From contig CBDCOU010000003.1 in NCBI GenBank assembly GCA_965219935.1, positions 289,632-353,631 on the forward strand: a stretch of 64,000 bases of DNA, written 5' to 3'. Source of the stretch: Caldilineaceae bacterium. GTDB taxonomy: Bacteria; Chloroflexota; Anaerolineae; Caldilineales; Caldilineaceae. This document shows, in pieces, positions 1,436-62,645 of this stretch. Under the pieces are notes generated by a model. That model ran no database searches. It was not told where the DNA came from and was given only the letters and a program-made list of their open reading frames with translations. A program made the translations under genes and the position numbers. Every line of letters starts with the position of its first letter. The first letter of the stretch is position 1.

Positions 1436-1585
1436 ATGAGAATCCAACCACGTTGGGATTGACAATCAAATTTCGGCCTGCGCCGAATGCAAAGCAAAGA
1501 AGGGGGTTGAGCGGAACGGCTCCCTAGCGCGACCATCGATTGTAGCACGCAGGTGGGCCGTCGGATCGCAGTCTGGATCCCAATC

Positions 1586-1638
1586 CAGGGCAATCGCATT
1601 CTGATTGGGGCGGTGCCTGCCATGGGTAGGATAGGGGG
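1586..1638 (+). repeat. Left terminal inverted repeat (53 bp) of the cassette
   Basis: cagggcaatcgcattctgattggggcggtgcctgccatgggtaggataggggg; preceded by GATCCCAATC. Confidence 0.8.
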
Positions 1639-2189
1639 CAGCACAAGCAGTGGTTACACTGTACGCAAGGACCCAAAACTGCACCGTCGCTTCCAAGGCA
1701 GGCTGGTCCGGGCGTGGAACCTGGCGGTTACTCCCGATAAGGAGGTCCTAAGGAGTGCCGGCTATGACCTCATAGTCTATCGGTGCGTATTGGGAACACC
1801 CTCAAACGGTCCCTGCCATCAGCGCGCGGCGTAGCCTCGTGATTGCCTCCCGAATGAGGAGGACACGACAACCTCGTGAAGCATGGATTATGTTGAGCCG
1901 TTTCCGGCTTGTGCGCGCCGGGCCGCTGTGTTCGCGTGAGTTCGTTGCCTTGCTACCACGACGCGTGGACGGTTTTCTCGGACCGGTCCGACTACAGCCT
2001 TCCGCCAACCGAATCAGCAATTGATTACCCTGTGACCCCGTATCCCGGTGGACGTACAAGCGATGTAGTATTCCGGAACCACAGGCCGCTTCCGACCCAG
2101 ACCTGCTGTCGGCGATCGACCGGGCTACCGGTCATCGGGAAGTACGCGTTGGTGTAGGCAGTTCACCGGAAGGGGCTCGAAGGGACGTC

Positions 2190-4001
2190 ATGAGGTTGGA
2201 CGCGGTCACTGGGCGGAGCGGTTCGTGGTTATGGATGTGGAGTCTGGGCCTGTGCCTGATGGTGGCAGGGTGCGCAGCCTACACGGAAACCCTAAGCTCT
2301 GAGGACGGCCCCGCGGCCTTTGCGGCGGTCAGTGCCGGTGGCGCTCACAGCTGCGGGGTTCAGACGGACGGCCTGGTCACCTGCTGGGGCAACAACGACT
2401 TCGGACAGTCCGCACCACCAACGGGATCTTTCACCACCGTCAGTGCCGGAGCCGTGCACACGTGCGCGGTGCGCATCGACGGCACCCTCGCCTGTTGGGG
2501 CAATAACGACTATGCACAGGCCACGCCACCATCAGGTACTTTCGCCACCATCAGCGCTGGGCCCCTGCACACCTGCGGGGTACGCACCGACGGGACCCTC
2601 GCCTGCTGGGGGGAATATTATGTTCGACAGTCCGTACCATCGGCAGACACGTTCACCGCCGTCAGTGCCGGAGCCGTGCACACGTGCGCGGTGCACGCCG
2701 ACGGAACCCTCACCTGCTGGGGCCAAAACGCCTACGGAAAGGCCACGCCACCATCAGGTACTTTCGCCGCCGTTGGTTCCGGAGGCGAACACACCTGCGG
2801 AGTGCGTGTAGATCGAACCCTTGCCTGCTGGGGCCGTGAATACTCCGGCCAACCTACACCTCCATCGGGAACCTTTGCCAACATCAGCACTGGCACCTGG
2901 TACAACTGCGGAGTACGGACCGACGGCACCCTCGCCTGCTGGGGCGAAAACTATTCTGGACAGGCCAATCCGCCACCAGGTACGTTCACCACCGTCAGTG
3001 TCGGAGGCCTGCACATGTGCGGGGTGCGCACCGACGGCGCCCTCGCCTGCTGGGGCAATGACGAATACGGGCAAGCCACCCCACCTACAACCTCCATCGC
3101 CACAGTCGGTAGCGAAACCCAGCCCACCCACACGGTGCGCACCGACGGCACCGCCACCCCTCGGGGTCGCGACTGGCTTGGACTGGCACTGCGCTCCAAG
3201 CCACCCGACGGTACCTTCACCACCATCAGTGCCGGAGCCTATCACACCTGCGGGGTGCGCACCGATGGCACCCTCGCCTGCTGGGGTTCGGACAGTTACG
3301 GACGGGCAACAGCGCCGACAGGTACTTTCGCCACAGTAGCTTCCGGCCTCCTGCATACCTGCGGGGTACGTACCGACGGCATCGTCACCTGTTGGGGTGA
3401 AAATCGCTACGAGCAGCAGGCTGCGCCGACAAGCAGCAATTTCACCGCCGTCAGTGCCGGAACCTGGCACACCTGCGGCGTGCGCACCGATGGCACCCTC
3501 GCCTGCTGGGGTCTTGACGACCATGGGCAGTCCACACCGCCCGGCGGCACCTTTGTTGCCGTCCGTGCCGGGTGGCGCCATACCTGCGGCATGCAGACCG
3601 ACGGAACCCTCATCTGCTGGGGCGATGATGACCACGGGCAGGTTACGCCTGCAAGTAGCACATTTACCGCCGTCAGTGCCGGAACCTGGCACACCTGCGG
3701 CGTGCGCACCGACGGCACCCTCGCCTGCTGGGGTCTTGACGACCATAGGCAGTCCACACCGCCCGGCGGCACCTTCGTTGCCGTCAGTGCTGGAGACCGA
3801 CACGCCTGCGGCGTGCGGACCGACGGAACCCTTGTCTGCTGGGGCAGCAACGAAGATTGGCAGGCCGAACCTCCGGACGGCACCTTCGTTGCCGTCAGTG
3901 CCGGGTGGAGCCATACCTGCGGCATGCGGACCGACGGGACCCTCGCCTGCTGGGGGAGAGTCTCGTTGCCCGCACCACTCATGCCGCCGTCTCGTGGATG
4001 A
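2190..4001 (+). CDS. Secreted lipoprotein made of 15 short RCC1-like beta-propeller repeats
   Basis: 603-aa ORF with an N-terminal signal and lipobox LMVAGC. It then has 15 units of about 37 aa of the form FxxVSAGxxHTCGVRTDGTLACWGxxxxGQxxPPxGT. AGGGA lies 4 nt upstream of the ATG. Confidence 0.85.
   Translation: MRLDAVTGRSGSWLWMWSLGLCLMVAGCAAYTETLSSEDGPAAFAAVSAGGAHSCGVQTDGLVTCWGNNDFGQSAPPTGSFTTVSAGAVHTCAVRIDGTLACWGNNDYAQATPPSGTFATISAGPLHTCGVRTDGTLACWGEYYVRQSVPSADTFTAVSAGAVHTCAVHADGTLTCWGQNAYGKATPPSGTFAAVGSGGEHTCGVRVDRTLACWGREYSGQPTPPSGTFANISTGTWYNCGVRTDGTLACWGENYSGQANPPPGTFTTVSVGGLHMCGVRTDGALACWGNDEYGQATPPTTSIATVGSETQPTHTVRTDGTATPRGRDWLGLALRSKPPDGTFTTISAGAYHTCGVRTDGTLACWGSDSYGRATAPTGTFATVASGLLHTCGVRTDGIVTCWGENRYEQQAAPTSSNFTAVSAGTWHTCGVRTDGTLACWGLDDHGQSTPPGGTFVAVRAGWRHTCGMQTDGTLICWGDDDHGQVTPASSTFTAVSAGTWHTCGVRTDGTLACWGLDDHRQSTPPGGTFVAVSAGDRHACGVRTDGTLVCWGSNEDWQAEPPDGTFVAVSAGWSHTCGMRTDGTLACWGRVSLPAPLMPPSRG
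2316..3957 (+). repeat. In-frame tandem repeat, period about 111 bp, 15 units (unit 8 degenerate)
   Basis: Seen in the translation. Segments 3444-3563 and 3666-3785 differ at only 3 of 120 nt, which indicates a recent two-unit (222-bp) internal duplication. Confidence 0.85.
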
Positions 4002-4588
4002 GAAAATCGGTGGCTCGTTTGCGTCCGCCATTGAGACAACCTCCCTTGACTTGCCTTGGGACCCGCACGGAAGTTGAAGACCCGATTTGCGAGGTTGATG
4101 CCTGTGGCCATCAAACCAAACGGCGGTTTGGCCTGCGGACGGCCATCAGGACGATGTCTGTCGTTGATTTACGGGTGCCGTACATGTCCCGCTTGCGGTG
4201 AGGGAAGGCCGGAGCACCGCACGAGATCCACCATGTCCACTGGAGCGCTGGACTGACCGGACTAACCGACTTTGGGTGCAAAAGAGTCACCCGGAGACCA
4301 GTTGGCAGGAACACTGGGTGGGATCCAACAAGCCGCAGACATGTCCGAAGGTGTCGTGCGAGGAAATACCGTGCGGCAGGATCAGGAATGTGGCCAGCCA
4401 AGCCTGCTTCTGGTGGCCAAAGAACTCGACTTCGGTCCCGTTGTCAGCGCCGTAGATGACGGCCAAGGTGGCGATCAGGAGAATGGCGCCGGGATTGGGG
4501 CCGACAGAGATCGTCAACCTCGGCCAGTAGGGACACAAGGGGGACGGGAGCAGGGTCGGCCATGAGGGATCTCCTCGGTGAAACGAAG

Positions 4589-4641
4589 CCCCCCGTCCTA
4601 CCCATGGCCGGCACCGCCCCAATTGGAATGCGATTGCCCTG
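4589..4641 (-). repeat. Right terminal inverted repeat (53 bp) of the cassette
   Basis: The reverse complement reads cagggcaatcgcattccaattggggcggtgccggccatgggtaggacgggggg. It is followed by GATCCCAATC at 4642-4651. Confidence 0.8.
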
Positions 4642-4788
4642 GATCCCAATCTCGGAAGTCGGGATGGAGTCCAGGCCAAAGAACACACAGGGGGTGCCCG
4701 CCCCGATTGGTTTCGCACAAGGATTCAACGCGTGCCAACCGTGCCGAGGGCGGTCCGGAACGGGGGGCGGATTGTCGGTCCTTGGCAC

Positions 4789-4818
4789 TTGACAATCCGC
4801 CCGAGCGCGGCCTAAAAT
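4789..4818 (+). promoter_or_regulatory. Candidate sigma-70-type promoter for tRNA-Glu
   Basis: TTGACA (4789-4794), an 18-nt spacer, then TAAAAT (4813-4818), about 42 nt upstream of the tRNA 5' end. Confidence 0.4.
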
Positions 4819-4859
4819 CCGGCCACATGCCTGAGCCAACAATTCCTACTCGGCTTTGG

Positions 4860-4935
4860 GGCGCATTCGTCTAACGGTTCAGGATACCGCCCTCTCAAGG
4901 CGGTGATACGGGTTCGAATCCCGTATGCGCTACCA
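4860..4935 (+). tRNA. tRNA-Glu (anticodon CUC), CCA encoded
   Basis: 76 nt. Acceptor stem GGCGCAT/ATGCGCT, and a D arm GTCT..AGGA typical of tRNA-Glu. The anticodon stem CCGCC/GGCGG has loop CTCTCAA. T arm ACGGGTTCGAATCCCGT, with terminal ACCA. Confidence 0.9.
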
Positions 4936-4965
4936 CCGCCACCCCGTGATCACGGGCCGTGGCCG

Positions 4966-5011
4966 AAAGCCCGGGCTCGCCTTCCCTCCAGGTGTCCCGG
5001 GCTTTCTTTTT
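4966..5011 (+). terminator. Candidate intrinsic terminator after tRNA-Glu
   Basis: Stem AAAGCCCGGG (4966-4975) pairs with CCCGGGCTTT (4996-5005), followed by CTTTTT. The loop is large at 20 nt. Confidence 0.45.
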
Positions 5012-5123
5012 GCCTGGTCCTGGGTTCCCGTACAGGACAGCCATCGCGGTGCCGGCCCGCGGCCGGAAACGGGGTGTCGCGGTACGCGGGAGGGGAGTTC
5101 AGCTGATCAAGGAGACTTCCCGG

Positions 5124-6605
5124 ATGCGCATTGAAAACGGTGGACCGTACATTGGTCACGAATGCCTGGTGCTGTTCCCGTTCGACACCCACAGCCTGCC
5201 CTACCAGAACGGAGTGGAACTCAAGCTGCACGGGCACACCGCGCCCTGCGGAACCACTCCCAGGGTGCTGGAACCCGGCTCCCCGGGCGATCCGGACTCG
5301 CTGCGCGCCATCTACTATGGCTCGGTGCACCGGGTCGGGGACCAGTTGTACATGTGGTACCTGGGACAGGACCATGATCCAGGCTGGTTCAGCCGCGTGT
5401 GCCTGGCCACCAGCCGGGACGGGTACACCTGGCACAAACCGGATTTGGGACTGGTGGAGTACAAGGGCAGCCGCCGCAACAACCTGGTGGACCTGCACCA
5501 GGGCCATGTGCATGTCCAGTCCTGTGTCGTATTCCACGATCCCGACGATCCCGATCCGGCCCGCCGTTTCAAGATGGTCTACCAGACCCGCATCTACGAC
5601 TGGCGGTTTGCGGTGGCCTTCAGTGCGGACGGCATGTCCTGGACACCACACCCGGACAATCCCGTGGGCTACTGGCTGGAAATGGCCGGCGGCATGCGGT
5701 TCAACGACTGCTATTTCCTGACTGGACAGGGCGGCAACCATGCGCGTCGGCTGCGCAATCTGGTGACCTACACCTCCTACGACTTCGAGGACTGGAGCTC
5801 CGCCTCCGTGCTGGGCATGCAGCGGTCCGGCGGGGACCGGCTGTTCCACGAGTGGCAGGGTACTGCCGGCAAGCAGATTCACCTGGGTGCGGCCCTGTGG
5901 AACCGGAACAACGTGATGCTTGGCTTCTACGGCATGTGGAACGGCCATCCGTCCAATGATCGGCGGCTGGTGGTCATGCACCTGGGATTGGCCGTGACGA
6001 ACGACGGTCTCCACTACCGGGAGCCGATTCCCGATTATCCGATTGTGTCCGCGGCCGAGGACGGATGGGAAGTCCTGCCGGATACCCGCACCAGCGACAA
6101 CTATCCGTCGCTGATTCAGGGACAGGGTTGCGAGAACATCGGCGACGAAACCCTGTTCTGGTACGCGCCGTGGCCGGAACAGGCCAGCGACGGCATCCGC
6201 GTCGCGAGTTGGCCGCGCGACCGGCTGGGCTCCTTCAAGCCCTACCTGGATCAGCGCATGGCGTCGCGGGGCGACTCGCACGTGATATCGGCGCCCATCG
6301 ATCTCGAAGGCCGTCCCGCCCGTCTGTCCCTCAACGTGGACGGCCAGGGCGAACACTGGCAGGTGCGCTGTTCGGTGCTGGACGAGCGGATGTGCCCGTT
6401 GCCCGGCTTCACCGCCGCCGACTGCCGGCCCGTCGCAGCCGGTTTGGCCGAACCGGTGACCTGGGCGAACGGCCTTGATGCGATCCCGCCCACAGAGGGG
6501 CGGATCAGACTGCGCGTCGACTTCGGTGGCATCAGGCCGGAGGACGCCAGTCTCTATGCACTGTATCTTGAGGGACCTATATCCATGACTAGACGGAAGA
6601 TGTAG
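5124..6605 (+). CDS. Hypothetical glycoside-hydrolase-like beta-propeller protein (GH43/GH32/GH130-like fold)
   Basis: Taken from ORF 4959..6605. I chose the ATG at 5124 because AAGGAG lies at 5109-5114. Recurrent blade-like motifs include ATSRDGYTWHKP, FHDPDDPDPARRFKMVY and AFSADGMSWTPHPDNPV. The family assignment is pattern recognition only. Confidence 0.6.
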   Translation: MRIENGGPYIGHECLVLFPFDTHSLPYQNGVELKLHGHTAPCGTTPRVLEPGSPGDPDSLRAIYYGSVHRVGDQLYMWYLGQDHDPGWFSRVCLATSRDGYTWHKPDLGLVEYKGSRRNNLVDLHQGHVHVQSCVVFHDPDDPDPARRFKMVYQTRIYDWRFAVAFSADGMSWTPHPDNPVGYWLEMAGGMRFNDCYFLTGQGGNHARRLRNLVTYTSYDFEDWSSASVLGMQRSGGDRLFHEWQGTAGKQIHLGAALWNRNNVMLGFYGMWNGHPSNDRRLVVMHLGLAVTNDGLHYREPIPDYPIVSAAEDGWEVLPDTRTSDNYPSLIQGQGCENIGDETLFWYAPWPEQASDGIRVASWPRDRLGSFKPYLDQRMASRGDSHVISAPIDLEGRPARLSLNVDGQGEHWQVRCSVLDERMCPLPGFTAADCRPVAAGLAEPVTWANGLDAIPPTEGRIRLRVDFGGIRPEDASLYALYLEGPISMTRRKM

Positions 6606-6746
6606 TACTTTATGCGGGTCGGCACGGAACAGTCGGCCGGCCCGCGGGACCGGGGCTGCTGCACGGCGAGAGGCGATCCCCGTTGGGGGACCTCAAGGAC
6701 CCGTGAACAGGATATTCAGGCTTGTCCAGTCATGGATATAGGTCCC
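6572..6746. repeat. 175-bp unit bounded by a perfect 19-bp inverted repeat (MITE-like element or long convergent-gene hairpin)
   Basis: GGGACCTATATCCATGACT at 6572-6590 and its exact reverse complement at 6728-6746. The left arm lies inside the last 11 codons of the 5124..6605 ORF. Confidence 0.6.
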
Positions 6747-6764
6747 TATTGACAGTAGTTGGGC

Positions 6765-56891: not shown

Positions 56892-57272
56892 GACAAGACC
56901 TTCCGCTCCGTCAAACCGCTCGCCTCCGCACCATGTCCAGAACCTCCAACAAATATTGGGGATTATAACCAGAATTCGATTTCGGCGTAGGCGCCGAGGG
57001 GTTGGCCATCCAGTTCCGGATAGCGCGCGGTGGGTACCGCAGTGGGACCAATACCATGGGACTTAATGCGGTCCTGCCAATCTGTCTCGATCATGGCCTT
57101 TGCCTGTCCTTGACACCGTCTGGGACCGGGCGGACCGGTATTCACCACGGTGTGGTGTGCAGTCCCGAATGTGAACGTCCCCTAATAATCTGTTGAAACT
57201 TTGCGCGCGTCGGTTCCATCCGGGCCGGCATACTCACGGCGCATTCATCCGCTTCTCTTTGGGGAGAATCCA

Positions 57273-58274
57273 ATGCGCAAACTGTTGTCTGTTTCCTTGT
57301 TGCTACTGGTGGCAATGCTGACTGCCTGCCGCCCCGCGCCGGCCACTGCTCCCGAACCGGAATCGGCTGCGGAGTCGGCTGTTGAGGAAGAAGCGATGGA
57401 AATGGGTCCCGCCGGCCTGCCGATGGTTGATCCCATGGCCGTCACGGGCGACATCATCATTGCCGGTAGTTCCACGGTATACCCTCTCGCCGAACGCATG
57501 GCGGAGCGGTTTGTGGACGAGGGTTATGACGGCAGCATCTCGATCTCCAGCATCGGCAGCGGCGCCGGCTTCGAGCGCTTCTGTGTTGCTGGCGAGACCG
57601 ATGTTTCCAACGCTTCGCGCCCCATCAAGGACAGCGAAGTGGAGAGTTGCAACGCCATCGAACGCGCTCCGATCGAACTGCGCGTGGGCACCGATGCCCT
57701 GGCGGTGGTCGTGAGCCAGGAAAACGACTTCCTGACAGATATCTCGATGGAAGAACTGGCCCAGATCTTCTCCACAGCGACCAACTGGTCGGACGTGAAC
57801 GCGGACTGGCCGAGCGAACCGATTCAGCGCTTCAGTCCGGGCACCGACAGCGGCACCTTCGACTACTTCGTGGAAGAGGTGTTCGACAAGGATGCGGAAC
57901 CAATTCTGGCCGCCGCCGAACTGCAGCTGAGCGAGGATGACAACGTCCTGGTCCAAGGCGTGCTGGGCAGCTCCTATGCCATCGGCTACTTCGGCTACGC
58001 GTATTACCAGGAAAATGCCGACACCCTGAAGGTTCTGTCCATCAACGGCGTGGAAGCCACCGCCGACAACGTGGACAACGCCACCTACCCGTTGGCCAGG
58101 CCCATGTTCATGTATTCGACCTCCGGCATTCTCAATGAGAAGCCTCAGGTTGCCGACTTCCTGAACTTTGTGCTCACCTACGTGAACGAGGAAATCGTGG
58201 ACGTGGGCTATTTCCCAGCCTCGGCCGCCGACATGCAGGCCGCGATTGACGGCTGGAAGATGGCGATGGAGTAG
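57273..58274 (+). CDS. pstS: Phosphate ABC transporter substrate-binding lipoprotein
   Basis: MRKLLSVSLLLLVAMLTAC lipobox, plus GSSTVYPL, GSGAGFERF and NASRPIK. The ATG at 57273 lies within ORF 57201..58274. Confidence 0.88.
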   Translation: MRKLLSVSLLLLVAMLTACRPAPATAPEPESAAESAVEEEAMEMGPAGLPMVDPMAVTGDIIIAGSSTVYPLAERMAERFVDEGYDGSISISSIGSGAGFERFCVAGETDVSNASRPIKDSEVESCNAIERAPIELRVGTDALAVVVSQENDFLTDISMEELAQIFSTATNWSDVNADWPSEPIQRFSPGTDSGTFDYFVEEVFDKDAEPILAAAELQLSEDDNVLVQGVLGSSYAIGYFGYAYYQENADTLKVLSINGVEATADNVDNATYPLARPMFMYSTSGILNEKPQVADFLNFVLTYVNEEIVDVGYFPASAADMQAAIDGWKMAME

Positions 58275-58349
58275 CAGACAGGTTGTTCGAAGCCATGGGG
58301 CCGCGATGAAGCCGCGGACATCGGGGCAGGCGGGTTCCGGTGGGGCCGA

Positions 58350-58560
58350 TCTACCCTCTCCCTTTGCTAGGGACTTATACCGAGGGGTTGACCCTCGGTA
58401 CGGGGGCGGGTTTGGGCCCGGCCCCCACAGGTGCGGGTGGACCGCGCCTGCCTCGTTCACGGGTTGTCGGGGTCCCCAACGGGATCGCCCCTCGCCGTGC
58501 AGCCGCCCCTGTCCCGCGGGCCGCAACGGGCACGCACGGAAGTCCCGCCCGCGCCAAAAT
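58350..58560 (-). ncRNA. Predicted omega (right-end) RNA of the TnpB element
   Basis: Inferred from the known TnpB architecture, in which the RNA overlaps the tnpB 3' end and the right end. The GC-rich tail is structured and includes the hairpin TACCGAGGG-N5-CCCTCGGTA. No expression data are available. Confidence 0.35.
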
Positions 58561-59988
58561 GTTGATCGCCGCATTGTGGTCGGCATTGGCCCGGAACCCG
58601 CAGGCCCCGCACGCGAACACCGCCTGCAACGGCCGGTTGTCCCGGTGGACATGGACACACCGGCTGCACGTCTGCGACGTGTAGGCCGGATCCACCTTCA
58701 GCAGGGCCCCCGCCTTGTACGCCAACTTGCGCTCCAACGCGCCCCAGCCGCTGGCCAGGATGCCGCGGTTGAGCCCCGACTTCTGCTTGACCTGCTTGCC
58801 GGGTTTCGCCACCGTGCCCTTGGCCGACCGGGTCATGGCCTTCGTGTTCAGATCCTCCACCACCACGGTATGCGCCGTGTCCGCCAGGGTGCGACTGGTC
58901 TGATGCGTGGCGTTGTCGCGCTTGCGCGCCCGTTTGCGGTGCAGCTTCTGCAACTGCCCGTTCACGCGCCGGCCCCGGTTCGACTTGGGCCGCTTGTCCT
59001 TGGGCCCCCAGCCCTGCTTGCGGCTGAGTTCCCGTTGCTTGTGGGCAATCTGTGCGTCCAGCGGGTCCGTATCGGGCATCGCGTACACGGTGCCCTCGCT
59101 GTCCGTGGCCTGCCCCACGTTGCGGTCCAGGCCGAGCGCACCGTCCGCGGCGGGTGGCCGCACCTGCGCCGCGGGCACCTCGTAGCAGACATGGGCGTAC
59201 CACTTGGGGTGCTGCTCGGTGCCTTCCATGCGCACGCGCACGGTCAAGGGCCGGCAGTCCGCGTACCGGTTCGACCCCGCCAGCCGCAGCCAGCCGACCT
59301 TGGGCACGTACAGACGATCCCCGTCCATCTTGACGGCCTCGGGAATGGTGAAGGCCGGCACGGTGAAGTGACGGGCCTTGAAGCGGGGCTTGCCTTCGTT
59401 CACAGGATCCGCGAAAAACCGCGTGTAGGCATCCGCCAAGTACTTCGGGCTGTAGCGCACGCAGGCATACGGGTAGTCCTTCAGCCAGGCATGGTCCGGG
59501 TCGTTGCGCAGTTCCGTGAACCGCTTGTACAGCGTGTAGCAGGAGACGGACGGCGTGGGTCCCATGCGCTTGCGGACGGCCTTGGTCCACGCCGTTTTGC
59601 CTGCCCGGACCTCCGGCCAGTTGGCCGCGGGCACGTGCATTTCCTTCCAGCGGGCGTACCGCCACTCGCAGTCGGCCAGCATGTGGTTCCAGACGTAACG
59701 GCAGGCGCCGGCGATGGCCGTCAGCAGGATGCCGGTGGCGGCATCGCCCGGATACAGGCGCAGGCGCACCGTGCGGTGGACCGTGTCCGGGGTCTGCGTT
59801 GTAGAATCGGGGCTGTCAGGCACGGGAGCCTCATTCCCTGTCTGATGGAGAGTCCGGTGTCCGCCGGGCTCTCATGTACATGCGTGCCATTATGCTGTAG
59901 GCGCACAAAGTTGCGCAAGTTTGAAGGGGCCCTGGGTCCTGGAGCACAGGGCTTGTTGTCAACGGCTCGCCATAAGCCCCCTTTGCTA
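58360..59988 (-). mobile_element. tnpB-only IS200/IS605-family (IS1341-like) element inserted between pstS and pstC
   Basis: A single TnpB ORF with no tnpA. The direct repeat CCCTTTGCTA lies at 58360-58369 and 59979-59988. A subterminal 9-bp-stem hairpin at 58378-58400 is next to the 3' end. The exact ends are not resolved. Confidence 0.7.
58375..59823 (-). CDS. tnpB: TnpB (IS605 OrfB) RNA-guided-nuclease-family protein
   Basis: RuvC-I LGLDRNVG, RuvC-II TVVVEDLN, Zn finger CSRC...CGAC and RuvC-III ADHNAAINI. GTG start. The last 55 codons or so are low-complexity read-through of the expected omega RNA region. Confidence 0.88.
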   Translation of the reverse strand: MPDSPDSTTQTPDTVHRTVRLRLYPGDAATGILLTAIAGACRYVWNHMLADCEWRYARWKEMHVPAANWPEVRAGKTAWTKAVRKRMGPTPSVSCYTLYKRFTELRNDPDHAWLKDYPYACVRYSPKYLADAYTRFFADPVNEGKPRFKARHFTVPAFTIPEAVKMDGDRLYVPKVGWLRLAGSNRYADCRPLTVRVRMEGTEQHPKWYAHVCYEVPAAQVRPPAADGALGLDRNVGQATDSEGTVYAMPDTDPLDAQIAHKQRELSRKQGWGPKDKRPKSNRGRRVNGQLQKLHRKRARKRDNATHQTSRTLADTAHTVVVEDLNTKAMTRSAKGTVAKPGKQVKQKSGLNRGILASGWGALERKLAYKAGALLKVDPAYTSQTCSRCVHVHRDNRPLQAVFACGACGFRANADHNAAINILARAGLPCVPVAARGTGAAARRGAIPLGTPTTRERGRRGPPAPVGAGPKPAPVPRVNPSV

Positions 59989-60039
59989 CGATCCCCTCTG
60001 ACTACTGATCACTGATCCGGGGACTGGGTACAAGCCTCC

Positions 60040-61038
60040 ATGAGCGTAAAACCTGGAGCCGAAGTTCTGACCGGCGGCCTCGGCATGGAAGTGGATGCTC
60101 GACAGTCGCTGACCAGGCGCCGCCGGCCGTTCGAGCAGTTCATGCACGGTGCGCTCTGGCTGTGCGGTGCCATCTCCATTCTGACGACCATCGGCATCGT
60201 GTACATGCTGGGCCAGGAGGCGCTCCTCTTCTTCCGGCGGGAGGAAGTCCGCCTGCTGGACTTCCTGACCGGTTGGACCTGGCAGCCCCAGACCCTTCAG
60301 TTCGGTATTTGGCCACTCGTCAACGCCACCATGGGGGCCAGCCTGATCGCCATGGCCCTGGCCCTGCCCTTGGGCCTTCTCATTGCCATCTACCTGAGCG
60401 AGTATGCCGGCTCCAGGGCGCGTCGCATCCTCAAGCCCATTCTGGAGGTGCTGGCCGGGATTCCCACCGTTGTCTATGGCTACTTCGCCTTGACCTTCGT
60501 CACCCCCATTCTGCGCAACCTGTTCGGGATTGAGGTGGTCGAGATCTTCAACATTGCCTCGGCCGGACTGGTCATCGGGGTCCTTGTACTGCCCACCGTG
60601 ACCTCCATGAGCGAGGACGCCTTGCGGGCGGTGCCCTTGGCGCTGCGGGAGGCGGCGGTGGGCCTGGGTGCCACAAAGCTGGAAACTTCCTTGCGCGTGG
60701 TCGTGCCGGCAGCCCTGTCCGGCATCTCCGCAGCCTTCATCGTGGCCATGTCCCGTGCCGTGGGCGAGACGATGATTGTCGCCGTGGCGGCGGGTGCGGG
60801 CCCCCGCAACTTTCCCGGTTGGGGCGAGGCGCTGGGCGGCCTGAAGGCCCTGAATCCCTTCCAGTCCGCCGAGACGATGACGGGCCACATCGTCCGCATC
60901 TCCGGTGGCGACATCAGCTACGACTCGCTGGACTACGACAGCCTGTTCGCCATCGGCCTCCTACTGTTTCTGATGACGCTGGGTCTCAACATCTTCAGTC
61001 GTGCCGTGGCGCGCCGCTTCCGCGAGAGGTATGACTGA
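60040..61038 (+). CDS. pstC: Phosphate ABC transporter permease
   Basis: SEDALRAVPLALREAAVGLGATKLET is the EAA loop. It is a multi-TM protein. Confidence 0.88.
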   Translation: MSVKPGAEVLTGGLGMEVDARQSLTRRRRPFEQFMHGALWLCGAISILTTIGIVYMLGQEALLFFRREEVRLLDFLTGWTWQPQTLQFGIWPLVNATMGASLIAMALALPLGLLIAIYLSEYAGSRARRILKPILEVLAGIPTVVYGYFALTFVTPILRNLFGIEVVEIFNIASAGLVIGVLVLPTVTSMSEDALRAVPLALREAAVGLGATKLETSLRVVVPAALSGISAAFIVAMSRAVGETMIVAVAAGAGPRNFPGWGEALGGLKALNPFQSAETMTGHIVRISGGDISYDSLDYDSLFAIGLLLFLMTLGLNIFSRAVARRFRERYD

Positions 61039-62645
61039 TGGGGGTTTTTGTCGACAAGACCGCAGTCGGCTGGCCGGAAGGAGCCGGGGAAGCATCCCAA
61101 ACCCGTCGCCGTCGGGTCAGGGGCAAGGCCTGGCGCGTTGTCATCAGGTGTTCCACGGTCTTTGGGCTGCTCGTGCTGACCACACTGCTGTACAACGTGG
61201 TCAACAGCACCTGGGGCTACGTGGTGGTGCGCGATAGGCTGAGCGAGCCTCTGATTGTTCTGCTTGAGCATCCCCACGTCACGCACGCTGAGCGACGGGT
61301 GGATGCCCTCAAGGACGTGGACGGCGACCCGAACGCCGTGGTGGTGCTGGCATCCGAACTGGTGCCGGCCGTGCCGGCCGGCTATCGGGTGCTGCCGGTG
61401 GGGACGCAACAGGCTGCGCTGGCCTTAACCGCTCTGGTATCCGAGGACAATCCGTTCCTGTTGGAGCTCGACGAAAGCGGATTGCTGGACCTGCTGGCTC
61501 CGGGTGCCCGCTGGTCCGACCTGGACGACAACTGGCCGGCCGACACCGTGTCGGTCGTGTTCGTTGTCGACAACGAAGGCGTTCTGAGCCGCTGGGCTGC
61601 GCGGCAGGATCTGCCGAACCTGGACAGCCTCGGGGCGGCCGGGCTTCTGGGAGTCCTGGAGACCCATCTGTCGGCAGGCCTGATCCGGCGCTACGACCGC
61701 GAGCAGCCGATGGCCGGACGCAACCGCGCCAACCTGCTTGCGTTGGTGGAGGAACGGGTCAAGGAGCCCGAGATCCTGGCGACCTTCACGCTGCGCGAGT
61801 CCCTGGTGCAGGCGGACGAGATACGGGCGTTTGCGGACGCCGAGGGTGCCGAAGCCAGTTTTCACAGTTGGCTAACGCCCGGGTTCCTGGTTCGGCCGCA
61901 GTCCGCCAACGCGGCCCTGTCCGGGATCCGCACCGCTCTCCTGGGGTCGCTGTGGGTCATCGCCATCACCATCTGTTTCTCCGTGCCGTTGGGAATCGGG
62001 GCGGCGATCTACCTGGAGGAGTTTTCCACCCGCAACTGGTTCGGCAGGATTGTCGAGACCAACATCAACAACCTGGCGGGAGTGCCGTCCATCATCTATG
62101 GCATGCTCGGCCTGGTGATTTTCGTGCGCGCCCTCACGCAGATCACCAGCGGCTCACTCTTCGGCATCGTGTCCGCGGACGAGGCCAGCGGCCGCACCAT
62201 TCTCTCGGCCGGCCTGACCCTCGGCCTGTTGATTTTGCCGGTCATCATCATCAATGGGCAGGAGGCAATCCGGGCCGTGCCGGACTCGTTGCGCGAGGCC
62301 GCCTACGGCGTGGGCTGCACGCGCTGGCAGTGTGTTCGGTGGCACGTTCTGCCGATGGCCGTGCCCGGCATCCTGACCGGGGCCATCCTGGCCGTGTCGC
62401 GGGCACTCGGTGAAACCGCGCCCCTGGTGGTGATTGGCGCGGCCACCTTCATCTCGGTCGACCCGACCAACCTGTTTGCGAAGTTCACTGTGCTGCCCAT
62501 CCAAATCTACCAGTGGACGGCACGGCCCCAGGCGGAATTCCGCAACATAGCGGCCGCAGCCATTCTGGTATTGCTGACACTGCTTCTGATCACCAACGCA
62601 ACCGCAGTGCTGTTGCGCAACCGCGCCGAAAGCCAACGGATATAG
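61038..62645 (+). CDS. pstA: Phosphate ABC transporter permease with a large extra-membrane insertion after TM1
   Basis: The C-terminal half has AVPDSLREAAYGVGCTRWQ and LGETAPLVVIGAATF. At 535 aa it is much longer than typical PstA. The ATGA start overlaps pstC. Confidence 0.85.
   Translation: MGVFVDKTAVGWPEGAGEASQTRRRRVRGKAWRVVIRCSTVFGLLVLTTLLYNVVNSTWGYVVVRDRLSEPLIVLLEHPHVTHAERRVDALKDVDGDPNAVVVLASELVPAVPAGYRVLPVGTQQAALALTALVSEDNPFLLELDESGLLDLLAPGARWSDLDDNWPADTVSVVFVVDNEGVLSRWAARQDLPNLDSLGAAGLLGVLETHLSAGLIRRYDREQPMAGRNRANLLALVEERVKEPEILATFTLRESLVQADEIRAFADAEGAEASFHSWLTPGFLVRPQSANAALSGIRTALLGSLWVIAITICFSVPLGIGAAIYLEEFSTRNWFGRIVETNINNLAGVPSIIYGMLGLVIFVRALTQITSGSLFGIVSADEASGRTILSAGLTLGLLILPVIIINGQEAIRAVPDSLREAAYGVGCTRWQCVRWHVLPMAVPGILTGAILAVSRALGETAPLVVIGAATFISVDPTNLFAKFTVLPIQIYQWTARPQAEFRNIAAAAILVLLTLLLITNATAVLLRNRAESQRI

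Follow-up and report, generated by a model that had tools for sequence, protein, structure and literature searches.

The biology of TnpB has been worked out for the IS200/IS605 and IS607 families, in which scarless excision explains why a guide derived from the flank is useful. To our knowledge, TnpB has only rarely been reported from bacterial elements that have inverted repeats and duplications, and without mechanistic characterisation. Elements of the IS200/IS605 family have neither inverted repeats nor target-site duplications (PMC7290912, PMC13565253). Six further TnpB branches are associated with DDE transposases; they have inverted terminal repeats, and for their solo copies mobilisation in trans has been proposed (PMC10691335). 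The DDE families named for these branches are ISL2, IS630 and IS1031 (PMC13565253). Finally, the reRNAs of Fanzor nucleases extend through the inverted repeat and the duplication (PMC10711439). In this work, a tnpB element in the pst operon of a Caldilineaceae genome is compared with these systems and with its own relatives. Its carrier, with inverted repeats and an 8-bp duplication, is a rare type for a bacterial TnpB.

The window (the whole 64-kb stretch of DNA that was analysed) contains a mobile element of 1,611 bp on the minus strand, at positions 58370-59980, whose sole gene is an intact tnpB. It lies between pstS (PBP_like_2), which ends at 58274, and pstC (BPD_transp_1), which starts at 60040; both are on the plus strand, with no other gene between them. 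The features of the element and its flanks, in the direction of tnpB, and one short derivative elsewhere in the window are as follows.

59989, minus strand: candidate TAM base, G at -1, directly preceding the left-end duplication when read in the direction of tnpB.
59981-59988, no strand: left-end target-site duplication, CTTTGCTA on the plus strand and TAGCAAAG in the tnpB sense; it abuts the inverted repeat exactly.
59958-59980, minus strand: left terminal inverted repeat, GGGGCTTATGGCGAGCCGTTGAC; 15 of the 20 outermost nt match the reverse complement of the right end.
59824-59957, minus strand: left subterminal region and 5' UTR, holding an imperfect palindrome, CATAAT and a 5'-UTR hairpin.
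58375-59823, minus strand: tnpB ORF of 482 aa; conserved protein to about aa 430-448, then a read-through tail.
58524-58600, minus strand: upstream hairpin, probably the 5' part of the omega-like RNA, overlapping the last conserved tnpB codons.
58455-58523, minus strand: omega-like RNA core, three nested helices and a 5' hairpin; it ends ...GACCCGUGAAC.
58401-58454, minus strand: subfamily-specific insert that separates the RNA core from the right inverted repeat and consists of two hairpins.
58370-58392, minus strand: right terminal inverted repeat, ending ...GTCAACCCCTCGGTATAAGTCCC; it overlaps most of the 9-bp-stem hairpin at 58378-58400.
58362-58369, no strand: right-end target-site duplication, identical to 59981-59988.
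58350-58369, minus strand: predicted guide, TAGCAAAGGGAGAGGGTAGA, made up of the duplication and pst spacer sequence.
6573-6747: mini element of 175 bp, with a degraded flanking repeat.

The ends form an imperfect pair of inverted repeats, about 23 nt long and of the type GGGRCTTAT..., and the 8-bp duplication, an AT-rich 8-mer from the pstS-pstC spacer, sits directly against them. An earlier note on this DNA had described a repeated decamer. This decamer, CCCTTTGCTA, does occur on both sides, at 58360 and 59979, and nowhere else in the window, but the true duplication is 8 bp long and the two extra bases agree by chance: on one side they are the GG with which the left end opens, on the other they belong to the flank. 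The hairpin at 58378-58400 (TACCGAGGG-GTTGA-CCCTCGGTA) has the perfect 9-bp stem reported for it; however, it is part of the right inverted repeat and not a subterminal TnpA hairpin of the IS605 type, as which it had been taken. An imperfect palindrome is indeed present upstream of tnpB, at 59906-59923, slightly offset from the position 59901-59916 given before. A -10-like CATAAT is located at 59894-59889, and since CATAAT or TATAAT recurs in relatives, we infer that it may be a promoter element; a scan with the sigma-70 consensus detected no promoter, and its single terminator-like site is below the chance expectation of 2.2. The 5'-UTR hairpin at 59847-59873 (GAGAGYCCGR...YCGGACTCTC) is conserved in relatives, with changes on both sides of the stem.

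Relatives were gathered by homologue searches. Exact-sequence protein look-ups of the TnpB, PstS and PstC of the window returned no record, and a literature search gave no description of TnpB in sponge Chloroflexi. Genomes of Caldilineaceae and metagenomes of sponges yielded 34 independent relatives with the same ends, and the 8-bp duplication is a different one in each. An unbiased search for an 8-mer repeat beside inverted repeats, run on all loci and the window, recovered 19 family copies in the window and the genome loci, and 22 non-redundant sites when one mismatch in the 8-mer was allowed; the metagenome loci add 12 tnpB copies and 4 MITEs, each with its own 8-mer. Over the 34 oriented tnpB copies and the 4 MITEs, the duplication is exact, or has one mismatch in a few cases. 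The two inverted repeats match at 15-20 of the first 20 nt across the family, and two copies (L006 and L040) combine perfect 20/20 repeats with exact duplications. Similarity to the independent copies L056, L058 and L081 begins at 59980 or at most 1 base from it, and among independent copies it drops out at, or at most 2 nt from, 59980 and 58370, in support of both boundaries. The repeat arrangement is beyond chance, because it abuts the ends exactly and recurs in 34 independent relatives with a new 8-mer each time.

Empty alleles provide the complementary evidence. In L082 and L084-L086 the pstS-pstC spacer is uninterrupted, and in L082 and L084 a single copy of the 8-mer, CTTTGTTA, is found at the position of the duplication. 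These empty sites prove the insertion of a tnpB-only element antisense in the spacer, as the earlier note had proposed, and the contrary reading as an ancestral non-mobile feature is not borne out. When the element and one repeat copy are removed, the remaining pstS-pstC spacer has 146 nt, close to the 150 nt or so that had been predicted.

The family is large in sponge-associated Caldilineaceae, with members also in a few other MAG lineages, and many unrelated loci hold very similar copies, with a separate duplication at each. It also includes short derivatives that have the same ends and duplications and lack the protein gene. Deletion derivatives among them range from 175 to 477 bp (477 bp in L056), in addition to MITEs of 193 bp with the same ends (L104, L105, L112 and L156), in which the covariance-model search found no RNA module.

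The insertion in the pst operon is shared with a sister lineage (L083), and the dS of the flanking genes between the two insertion-sharing lineages is about 0.16-0.26. For pstC, the dN/dS is 0.066 with a dS of 0.16, from which it follows that pstC is not decaying. Under such strong purifying selection the suggested polar effect on pstCAB, if meant as a strong one, is unlikely.

The protein has the hallmarks of TnpB that had been noticed earlier, namely the RuvC D/E/D residues and the CxxC...CxxC finger. It matches the Pfam models HTH_OrfB_IS605 (PF12323), OrfB_IS605 (PF01385) and Cas12f1-like_TNB (PF07282), all above their gathering thresholds, and the NCBIfam model NF040570 (guided_TnpB), for which the cut-off is 100 bits and the score 208.4 bits. 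The motif LGLDRNVG begins at residue 230, VVVEDLN at residue 320 and ADHNAAINI at residue 414, while CSRC and CGAC start at 386 and 405. Across 20 homologues of 55-85% identity, D233, E323 and D415 as well as the cysteines C386, C389, C405 and C408 never vary, so that no catalytic residue is substituted in the alignment. Alignment also places these residues on the catalytic motifs of PDB 9YYG, an AI-designed TnpB-like nuclease, and on motifs conserved in RdCas12n. An intact ORF is found in the window, in L083 and in L081; compared with the orthologous insertion L083 its dN/dS is 0.19, and compared with the paralogue L081 it is 0.26. Judged from these substitution ratios, tnpB is maintained by purifying selection. 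Its product is probably an RNA-guided DNA cutter. The tail of the ORF, on the other hand, is rich in Gly, Pro, Arg and Ala and not conserved as protein, and the orthologue stops at codon 449. The dS of the tail is 0.04 compared with 0.18 for the tnpB core, which indicates constraint at the nucleotide level and agrees with the earlier idea that the tail is read-through of an RNA scaffold.

Among solved structures, the top match by sequence is RdCas12n (type V-N, PDB 9J09, PMC12216341), with an E-value of 6.9e-28 over residues 278-426, the RuvC/TNB half. RdCas12n is a monomeric miniature nuclease regarded as near TnpB; however, Cas12n is CRISPR-associated, has 540 aa and uses an A-rich PAM, whereas there is no CRISPR array here and only the C-terminal half aligns well. 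ISDra2 TnpB (PDB 8H1J, 8EXA) aligns over the greater part of the protein, residues 102-426, with an E-value of 1.1e-14 and has the same layout of the D/E/D residues and the zinc finger, and its RNA is likewise encoded at the 3' end of the gene. Unlike the present element, ISDra2 is a Y1-TnpA element of the IS200/IS605 family with a TTGAT TAM and neither inverted repeats nor a duplication.

Covariation among the relatives shows that the segment from the 3' end of tnpB up to the right end encodes a conserved RNA module. The low dS of 0.04 noted for the ORF tail applies to this RNA region. In the RNAalifold consensus of the core, which contains compensatory changes, 99.7% of the cells are paired, and 19 cells have double changes compared with 3.9 in shuffles; none of 500 shuffles reached the observed covariation, and slid controls collapse. 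The covariance model scores 91.6 bits at 58455-58523 and 83.9 bits at an independent second copy in the window, and also matches distant relatives. The structured RNA that had been expected at the 3' end is thus supported by covariation, and it overlaps the 3' end of tnpB. In Rfam, a search of 57800-60400 with E <= 10 gave two chance-level matches only and no matching family. For the upstream hairpin, the sequence differs by subfamily and the pairing is kept (GCGGGC...GCCCGU, GUGCGC...GCGCAC and CCAGGGG...CCCCUGG), as seen by eye in a gappy alignment. The two-hairpin insert is present in the window, L056, L081, L017, L029, L039 and L041. By protein sequence the closest relatives are L001, L002 and L016; they lack the insert, and their right end comes directly after GTGAAC. 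These extra hairpins of about 55 nt in the subfamily of the window could disturb a scaffold that needs to reach the right terminus.

A candidate pseudoknot is formed by the last 5 nt of the right end (GUCCC) and the loop GGGAC at 58510-58514. Its pair 11-25 occurs as AU 12 times, as GC 5 times and as GU once, and is unpaired 4 times; the observed score was reached in 1 of 500 shuffles. The covariation of the pseudoknot is modest and the sequences are related, and this counts against the main reading given below. As a candidate, the pseudoknot would place the start of the guide immediately after the right end. The guide listed above is predicted from this covariation, which sets the 3' end of the scaffold at the right terminus, and from the analogy with the reRNAs of TnpB and Fanzor (PMC10711439). 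It fits the earlier proposal of a guide in the 16-20 nt beyond the right end. A guide start directly after GTGAAC, inside the element, was also considered and rejected, since a conserved hairpin is located there in the subfamily of the window and the inner right repeat elsewhere.

The flanks of the family show one more regularity. The base at -1 is G in 32 of the 34 independent insertions, while the symmetric +1 position has G in 18, C in 8, A in 6 and T in 2. From these counts, the orientation-dependent G may be the TAM. A TAM of one base would be unusual for TnpB. No conserved tetra- or pentanucleotide was found 5' of the left end across the copies, only the single G at -1, in disagreement with a fixed TAM motif of the IS200/IS605 kind. 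The duplicated 8-mer itself has a roughly palindromic W3-S2-W3 profile. A symmetric transposase leaves the orientation-specific G unexplained; this and the single-base TAM count against the main reading.

Which enzyme moves the element was approached from the gene content of the copies. In more than 35 complete bounded copies tnpB is the sole gene, if the IS630-like and ISAs1-like insertions nested in some of them are set aside; no bounded copy has a tnpA, and none is present in cis. No partner transposase was found in the 86 genome-derived loci, the 70 metagenome loci and the window, loci with one end captured included. Clustering of ORFs of at least 150 aa for multi-copy proteins other than TnpB gave ABC-transporter permeases as the two largest clusters and seven smaller cluster representatives with no Pfam match, and a pattern scan of the metagenomes for the inverted repeats returned TnpB elements, MITEs, partnerless ends and unrelated low-GC chance matches. 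As candidate partners, the IS630-like genes in L012 were rejected as a nested insertion at TA within the right repeat, the ISAs1-like genes in L009 as nested in the left repeat with their own ends (CCAGGGCAATCGCA), and the DDE_5 (IS701-like) element in L002 because its ends are unrelated. The element is most likely non-autonomous and mobilised in trans by a staggered-cutting transposase, for which the deletion derivatives and MITEs also speak; the assignment of the latter to the DDE type follows from the inverted repeats and the duplication only.

The IS1595 family, in its ISNwi1 and ISSod11 groups, gives an 8-bp duplication and has the end consensus ggnnatTAT or nnnGcnTATC in the ISfinder family table. 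This consensus presumably resembles GGGAATTAT and GGGGCTTATATC, over about 9 nt only, and we take it as a lead; unlike in IS1595, no IS1595-type transposase was seen at the loci examined. ISL2, IS630 and IS1031 give duplications of 2-3 bp. The present family differs from the branches linked to them by its 8-bp duplication, and at the loci examined no DDE gene was found beside or inside a copy. In other respects it is similar to the DDE-1 to DDE-6 branches (Altae-Tran et al. 2023, PMC10691335): TnpB lies within an inverted-terminal-repeat element, mobilisation of solo copies in trans is assumed, and the 3' end of tnpB is at most 250 bp from the end of the element, the conserved protein here ending about 160 nt away. 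Cut-and-paste DDE elements are, however, said to gain little from restorative homing of the TnpB type (review, PMC13565253).

Taken as a whole, the locus is likely a 1.6-kb non-autonomous transposon with inverted repeats, moved in trans, that carries tnpB and a predicted guide-RNA module. Its target was an AT-rich 8-mer in the pstS-pstC spacer, which was duplicated on insertion; the transposase responsible would be encoded elsewhere, would most likely be of DDE type and would make cuts staggered by 8 bp. TnpB would bind the RNA module as its omega RNA or reRNA, with a 3' scaffold that runs through the right inverted repeat and pairs its last 5 nt with the upstream loop, and the guide would be the flank just past the right end (TAGCAAAGGGAGAGGG...). 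The complex of TnpB and RNA would cut alleles without the element. The sequence matching the guide would follow G in the empty allele and the terminal C of the right repeat in the occupied one, and repair from the occupied copy would retain or spread the element.

We more tentatively consider the family as a possible, though rather doubtful, bacterial counterpart of Fanzor, in which TnpB and its RNA would be the standard cargo of a cut-and-paste family whose transposase is never in cis, the G at -1 would be the TAM, and empty alleles would be subject to a drive. Insertion would swap the G for the terminal C of the right repeat, so that TnpB would cut only empty alleles and, in a population of recombining symbionts, would drive the spread of the element. 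This would accord with the mosaic haplotypes that surround the pst insertion. Fanzor1 and Fanzor2* are also TnpB-family nucleases in non-autonomous transposons, there eukaryotic and of the cut-and-paste type, with inverted repeats and duplications (PMC10711439, PMC3627910), and there as here the RNA must cross the inverted repeat to reach a flank-derived guide. In contrast to Fanzor, the host here is bacterial and the protein is a typical TnpB. The duplication of Fanzor1 was proposed as part of the scaffold, whereas here its sequence varies from copy to copy and the right terminus is where the candidate pseudoknot ends.

It is improbable that the element is a decaying or inert relic, immobile and with tnpB and RNA of no function. 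The insertion is old, being common to two lineages with a flanking-gene dS of about 0.16-0.26, its ORF tail is unconserved, and extra hairpins precede the right end in the subfamily of the window. However, the window, L083 and L081 all have an intact ORF, with a dN/dS of 0.19-0.26, the catalytic and zinc-binding residues are invariant, and the RNA core is conserved with compensatory changes; the perfect repeats and exact duplications of L006 and L040 also suggest recent movement. We find it very unlikely that TnpB was domesticated for the benefit of the host, either as a TldR-like RNA-guided regulator or within an element that supplies expression signals to pstCAB. Unlike in TldR, the nuclease residues are intact; copies of very similar sequence, with their own duplications, are found at many unrelated loci; close relatives do well with an empty site; and the guide's own site in the occupied allele is preceded by C and not by the conserved G. 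These points are set against the retention of the insertion in two lineages, the purifying selection on both tnpB and pstC, and a predicted guide that consists of pst spacer sequence.

There is very little to recommend a classical IS200/IS605 element of the IS1341 group, with subterminal hairpins, movement as ssDNA by a Y1 TnpA in trans, a fixed TAM and no duplication. The IS200/IS605-type NCBIfam model does score 139 bits against 90 bits for the IS607-type model, the right end has a perfect 9-bp hairpin, and the IS1341 group resembles the present family in its single tnpB, its RNA overlapping the 3' end, its multiple copies and the lack of tnpA in cis. The end structure already contradicts this framing, since terminal inverted repeats and 8-bp duplications are both foreign to the family (PMC7290912, PMC13565253), and differing 8-bp direct repeats lie beside terminal inverted repeats in 34 of 34 oriented copies, with one copy of the 8-mer in the empty alleles. 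The ends of IS200/IS605 are asymmetric hairpins with insertion 3' of a fixed motif of 4-5 nt; neither holds here, and the left end has no such conserved motif. Ends of the IS607 type do not match either, given the inverted repeats and the duplication, and a serine recombinase is found in no copy. It is scarcely credible that TnpB and its RNA are the sole mobility activity encoded by the element, with a staggered cut filled in to give the 8-bp repeat and no separate transposase: TnpB and Cas12 enzymes do make staggered cuts, another transposase occurs in 0 of more than 35 complete bounded copies despite abundant MITE derivatives, and the target feature is orientation-specific, but no precedent is known to us, both ends have an inverted repeat of about 23 nt, the hallmark of a transposase binding site, the 193-bp MITEs have the same ends without the RNA module, and the roughly palindromic profile of the 8-mer is typical of a symmetric transposase.

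As an observation, the earlier note is confirmed, all the features that it described being present, and its interpretation is partly supported. The insertion splits the pst operon of its host, with no visible decay of pstC. In this family, clean copies with exact boundaries are available by the dozen, along with empty sites and an orthologous insertion for tests of selection; the MITE derivatives include both RNA-only and RNA-less forms, and the target feature is a single base that depends on orientation. Therefore, the delimitation of a guide RNA when an inverted repeat and a duplication separate the scaffold from the flank, the identity of the TAM, and whether TnpB aids the persistence of a staggered-cut transposon are all testable with this family.

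The intact tnpB element that the earlier note described inside the pst operon is real, and it lies between pstS and pstC on the opposite strand, as claimed. To judge from its sequence, it is carried by a non-autonomous transposon that has inverted repeats and makes an 8-bp duplication, not by an IS200/IS605 element.

Features at the insertion in the window
ends 58274, +: pstS, upstream neighbour of the element
58370-59980, -: element, 1,611 bp, boundaries from the similarity limits of loci L056, L058 and L081
58375..59823, -: tnpB ORF, 482 aa
starts 60040, +: pstC, followed by pstA and pstB, both +

The element limits were placed at 58370-59980 because the similarity of independent copies breaks there: it begins at or no more than one base from 59980, and ends no more than 2 nt from 58370. 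The copies used were L056 (a 477-bp deletion derivative, 91-97% identical to the window element at both ends), L058 (where just the left end matches) and L081 (full-length, 90.5% identical, inserted at an unrelated site). The other genomic copies sought by the earlier note to fix the exact ends do exist, and they share their end limits. The element is bounded by inverted repeats that match imperfectly, the left one being GGGGCTTATGGCGAGCCGTTGAC and the right one, as reverse complement, GGGACTTATACCGAGGGGTTGAC. Both flanks carry the 8-mer TAGCAAAG (tnpB sense), and the duplication is different in each copy of the family, for example CGACCTTT in L081 and TATCCTAA in L056. The decamer CCCTTTGCTA, earlier proposed as the flanking repeat, is found within the 64-kb window only at 58360 and 59979, and both copies are real, but the true repeat is the 8-mer, to which the decamer adds GG, with the left GG being the inverted repeat start and the right one chance flank bases. 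The 9-bp-stem hairpin at 58378-58400 is present. The imperfect palindrome upstream of tnpB is also present, at 59906-59923 rather than 59901-59916.

A scan of a genome collection gave 80 loci with relatives, mostly Caldilineaceae MAGs, and the named protein matches are likewise Caldilineaceae, from sponge metagenome bins. In an unbiased search of the window and genome loci, accepting any 8-mer repeated directly outside paired inverted 20-mers, 19 family copies were recovered; permitting one mismatch gave 22 non-redundant oriented sites. Scanning metagenomes for the inverted-repeat pattern added 12 tnpB copies and four 193-bp MITEs (short copies with the same ends and no protein gene), mostly from sponge metagenome records. 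These MITEs (L104, L105, L112 and L156, all on sponge metagenome contigs) have 8-bp duplications that are exact in three and have one mismatch in L105. The covariance model described below finds no omega-like RNA core in any of the four, and so the ends alone suffice for mobilisation. A second end class (GGGGATGAGTAGTTA...), also with 8-bp duplications, bounds a related tnpB and RNA module in L028 and a 175-bp MITE in L006 which keeps the RNA core. Ends of this class (GGGGATGAGTAGTTAGGGGC and similar) were located at L028 3891-5365 and L006 3611-3785, and also in L010 and L045. The tnpB-RNA cassette has thus been joined to two or more end types. Family members were also observed beyond Chloroflexota, at 3901-5256 of a Rariloculaceae MAG locus (L040) and 3856-5198 of an alphaproteobacterial one (L047), with TnpB at 42% identity; the L040 copy has perfect inverted repeats (20/20) and an exact 8-bp duplication. 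These observations suggest that the family has passed horizontally from phylum to phylum and has been active recently.

Inverted repeats and duplications are both lacking in IS200/IS605 and IS607 elements (PMC7290912, PMC13565253). The IS200/IS605 framing of the earlier note does not survive three defining tests: inverted repeats and 8-bp duplications are present, and no tetra- or pentanucleotide is conserved beside the left end. IS607 membership was rejected on the inverted repeats and duplications. Six TnpB branches are tied to DDE transposases and have inverted terminal repeats (PMC10691335), and ISL2, IS630 and IS1031 are the DDE families named for them (PMC13565253). As to its ends, the element agrees with this DDE-associated group. 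Duplications of ISL2, IS630 and IS1031 are 2-3 bp, whereas the present family duplicates 8 bp. The ends resemble the IS1595-family (ISNwi1/ISSod11) consensus, which serves as a lead only.

No gene besides tnpB belongs to any of the complete bounded copies examined (more than 35), and long-ORF clustering, Pfam scans and inspection of TnpB-less metagenome loci gave no transposase candidate. Deletion derivatives and MITEs that share these ends are abundant, which favours a transposase acting in trans; solo TnpB copies in the DDE-associated branches are thought to be mobilised in this way (PMC10691335). IS630-like genes in L012 and ISAs1-like genes in L009 were considered as partners and rejected, each being a nested insertion with its own ends and duplication. 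The former (HTH and DDE ORFs, TA duplication) lies within the right repeat at about 5350-6480 and the latter within the left repeat at 2996-3867. The tnpB elements are themselves hit by insertions, and the genome is IS-rich. Separately, a 3,058-bp segment of the window (1585-4642) lies between ISAs1-type-looking inverted repeats CCAGGGCAATCGCATTC (18/20) and is flanked by the 8-bp direct repeat ATCCCAAT. Its cargo is an RCC1-repeat protein with a PLD motif and no transposase, and the same end type occurs in L009 and L023, in small elements and nested insertions.

The pstS-pstC spacer is uninterrupted in contigs with PstS at 96% (L082) and 93% (L084-L086) identity, and these empty spacers hold one CTTTGTTA at the very position taken in the window by CTTTGCTA-element-CTTTGCTA; this is the comparison of relatives that the earlier note had proposed. 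Locus L083 (PstS at 98% local identity, with 88% of the protein aligned) carries the same insertion, with 94.7% gapless identity to the window over 1,894 nt. On these alignments the insertion is real and common to two lineages. Polarity on the downstream genes had also been suggested. It was found that the window has intact pstA and pstB genes and that pstC has a purifying dN/dS of 0.066 (dS 0.16) between the two lineages sharing the insertion; the downstream genes are therefore still selected, which makes a strong polar block improbable. Along the operon, identity forms a mosaic: over the 5' half of pstS, L083 is the same as the empty allele L082; over the ~230 nt just ahead of the insertion it is the same as the window; and in pstA it is strongly unlike both. 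When window 57142-61800 is compared with L082, L083 and L084, stretches at 100% identity are interspersed with others at 70-93%, and the closest strain pair changes from one stretch to the next along pstS-pstC-pstA. This indicates frequent homologous recombination among strains at the locus. Occupied and empty alleles share only 68% identity in the spacer beside the insertion. Within the L083 element, positions 701-950 (a tnpB block) are 96-98% identical to the paralogue L081 and 87-90% to the window, which suggests gene conversion between element copies. Both processes appear to be active, and this is compatible with the occupied allele having spread through homologous recombination, without proving it.

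The 482-aa ORF matches HTH_OrfB_IS605, OrfB_IS605 and Cas12f1-like_TNB in Pfam and scores 208 bits against NCBIfam guided_TnpB (cut-off 100). Its TnpB motifs are at the positions claimed earlier. The RuvC residues D233, E323 and D415, which lie in the motifs named by the earlier note, are unsubstituted in an alignment of 20 homologues at 55-85% identity, where the four zinc-finger Cys are also invariant; all these residues line up with the catalytic motifs in solved structures of TnpB-like and Cas12n proteins. In every feature open to computation, the protein agrees with TnpB. The core evolves with dN/dS 0.19 (dS 0.18) against the orthologous L083 and 0.26 against L081. In the final 52 codons dS is only 0.04 (window versus L083) and the L083 ORF already ends at a stop in codon 449, which places the constraint on the nucleotides and not on the protein. 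A hairpin in the 5' UTR (GAGAGCCCGGCGGACACCGGACTCTC, 59847-59873, -), downstream of a -10-like CATAAT and ahead of the start codon, is kept in relatives with its stem altered on both sides (CCGG/CCGG to CCGA/TCGG), and may be a regulatory structure.

Rfam has no family match at the element. The 3' regions of 23 family members were aligned, and the core consensus is ...GGCCCGCGGGACAGGGGC-NN-CUGCACGGCGAG-[GGGG..CCC..GGG..CCCC]-GACGACCCGUGAAC. Compensatory changes occur in the outer helix (A-U to G-C) and at two pairs of the middle helix (G-C to A-U or C-G). Paired cells make up 99.7% of the core alignment, compared with 22-63% in slid controls, and 19 double-change cells were observed against 3.9 in shuffles (0/500 reach 19). 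A covariance model, built with the window's second copy left out, gives 58455-58523(-) a score of 91.6 bits and 6638-6708(+) one of 83.9 bits, and its matches extend to distant relatives, among them the Rariloculaceae and alphaproteobacterial MAGs. The structured RNA expected at the tnpB 3' end is thus supported by a covarying core. The right inverted repeat adjoins GTGAAC directly in most relatives; the window's subfamily has ~55 nt of extra hairpins between them. The second copy belongs to a 175-bp mini element (6573-6747, +) with perfect 19-bp inverted repeats (GGGACCTATATCCATGACT), a complete omega-like core and no tnpB. It lies between convergent genes, with its left end giving ORF 4959-6605 its final codons and stop, and its flanking 8-mers are degraded (TATCTTGA and TATTGACA). 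It could act in trans as the source of a second guide RNA.

The first RNA hairpin has a loop, GGGRC, whose complement, GYCCC, forms the five terminal bases of the right end. One such pair covaries, being A-U in 12 sequence types, G-C in 5, G-U in 1 and unpaired in 4, and its neighbour is C-G in 18, U-G in 2 and U-A in 1. Only 1/500 shuffles reached this covariation, which is modest evidence for a candidate pseudoknot. The candidate pairing parallels the guide-adjacent pseudoknot experimentally shown in an IS607 TnpB RNA (PMC10711439). From the covariation and this parallel, we infer that the scaffold 3' end would be the right terminus and the guide the adjoining flank, in this copy TAGCAAAGGGAGAGGGTAGA (58369 down to 58350).

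Compared over 34 oriented insertions, the duplicated 8-mer is approximately a palindrome with AT-rich ends (W-W-W-S-N-W-W-D), as would be expected for a symmetric transposase. Immediately 5' of the left-end duplication, the base is G in 32 of the 34 independent insertions (window 59989; also L002, L008, L081, L119 and L145, for example), with a chance of roughly 1e-14 by our own calculation (G ~31% of bases). The mirror position after the right-end duplication is G 18, C 8, A 6 and T 2, so that C does not prevail there. A symmetric transposase would not explain this G. The feature is orientation-dependent and so should reflect the sole oriented component, tnpB with its RNA. The guide-matching sequence would be preceded by G in the empty allele and by the terminal C of the right repeat in the occupied one, and our hypothesis is that the G is a target-adjacent motif telling empty from occupied alleles. 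We regard the finding as of moderate interest because no complete bounded copy encodes a transposase, the boundaries are clean, and there are a candidate pseudoknot and an orientation-specific G.
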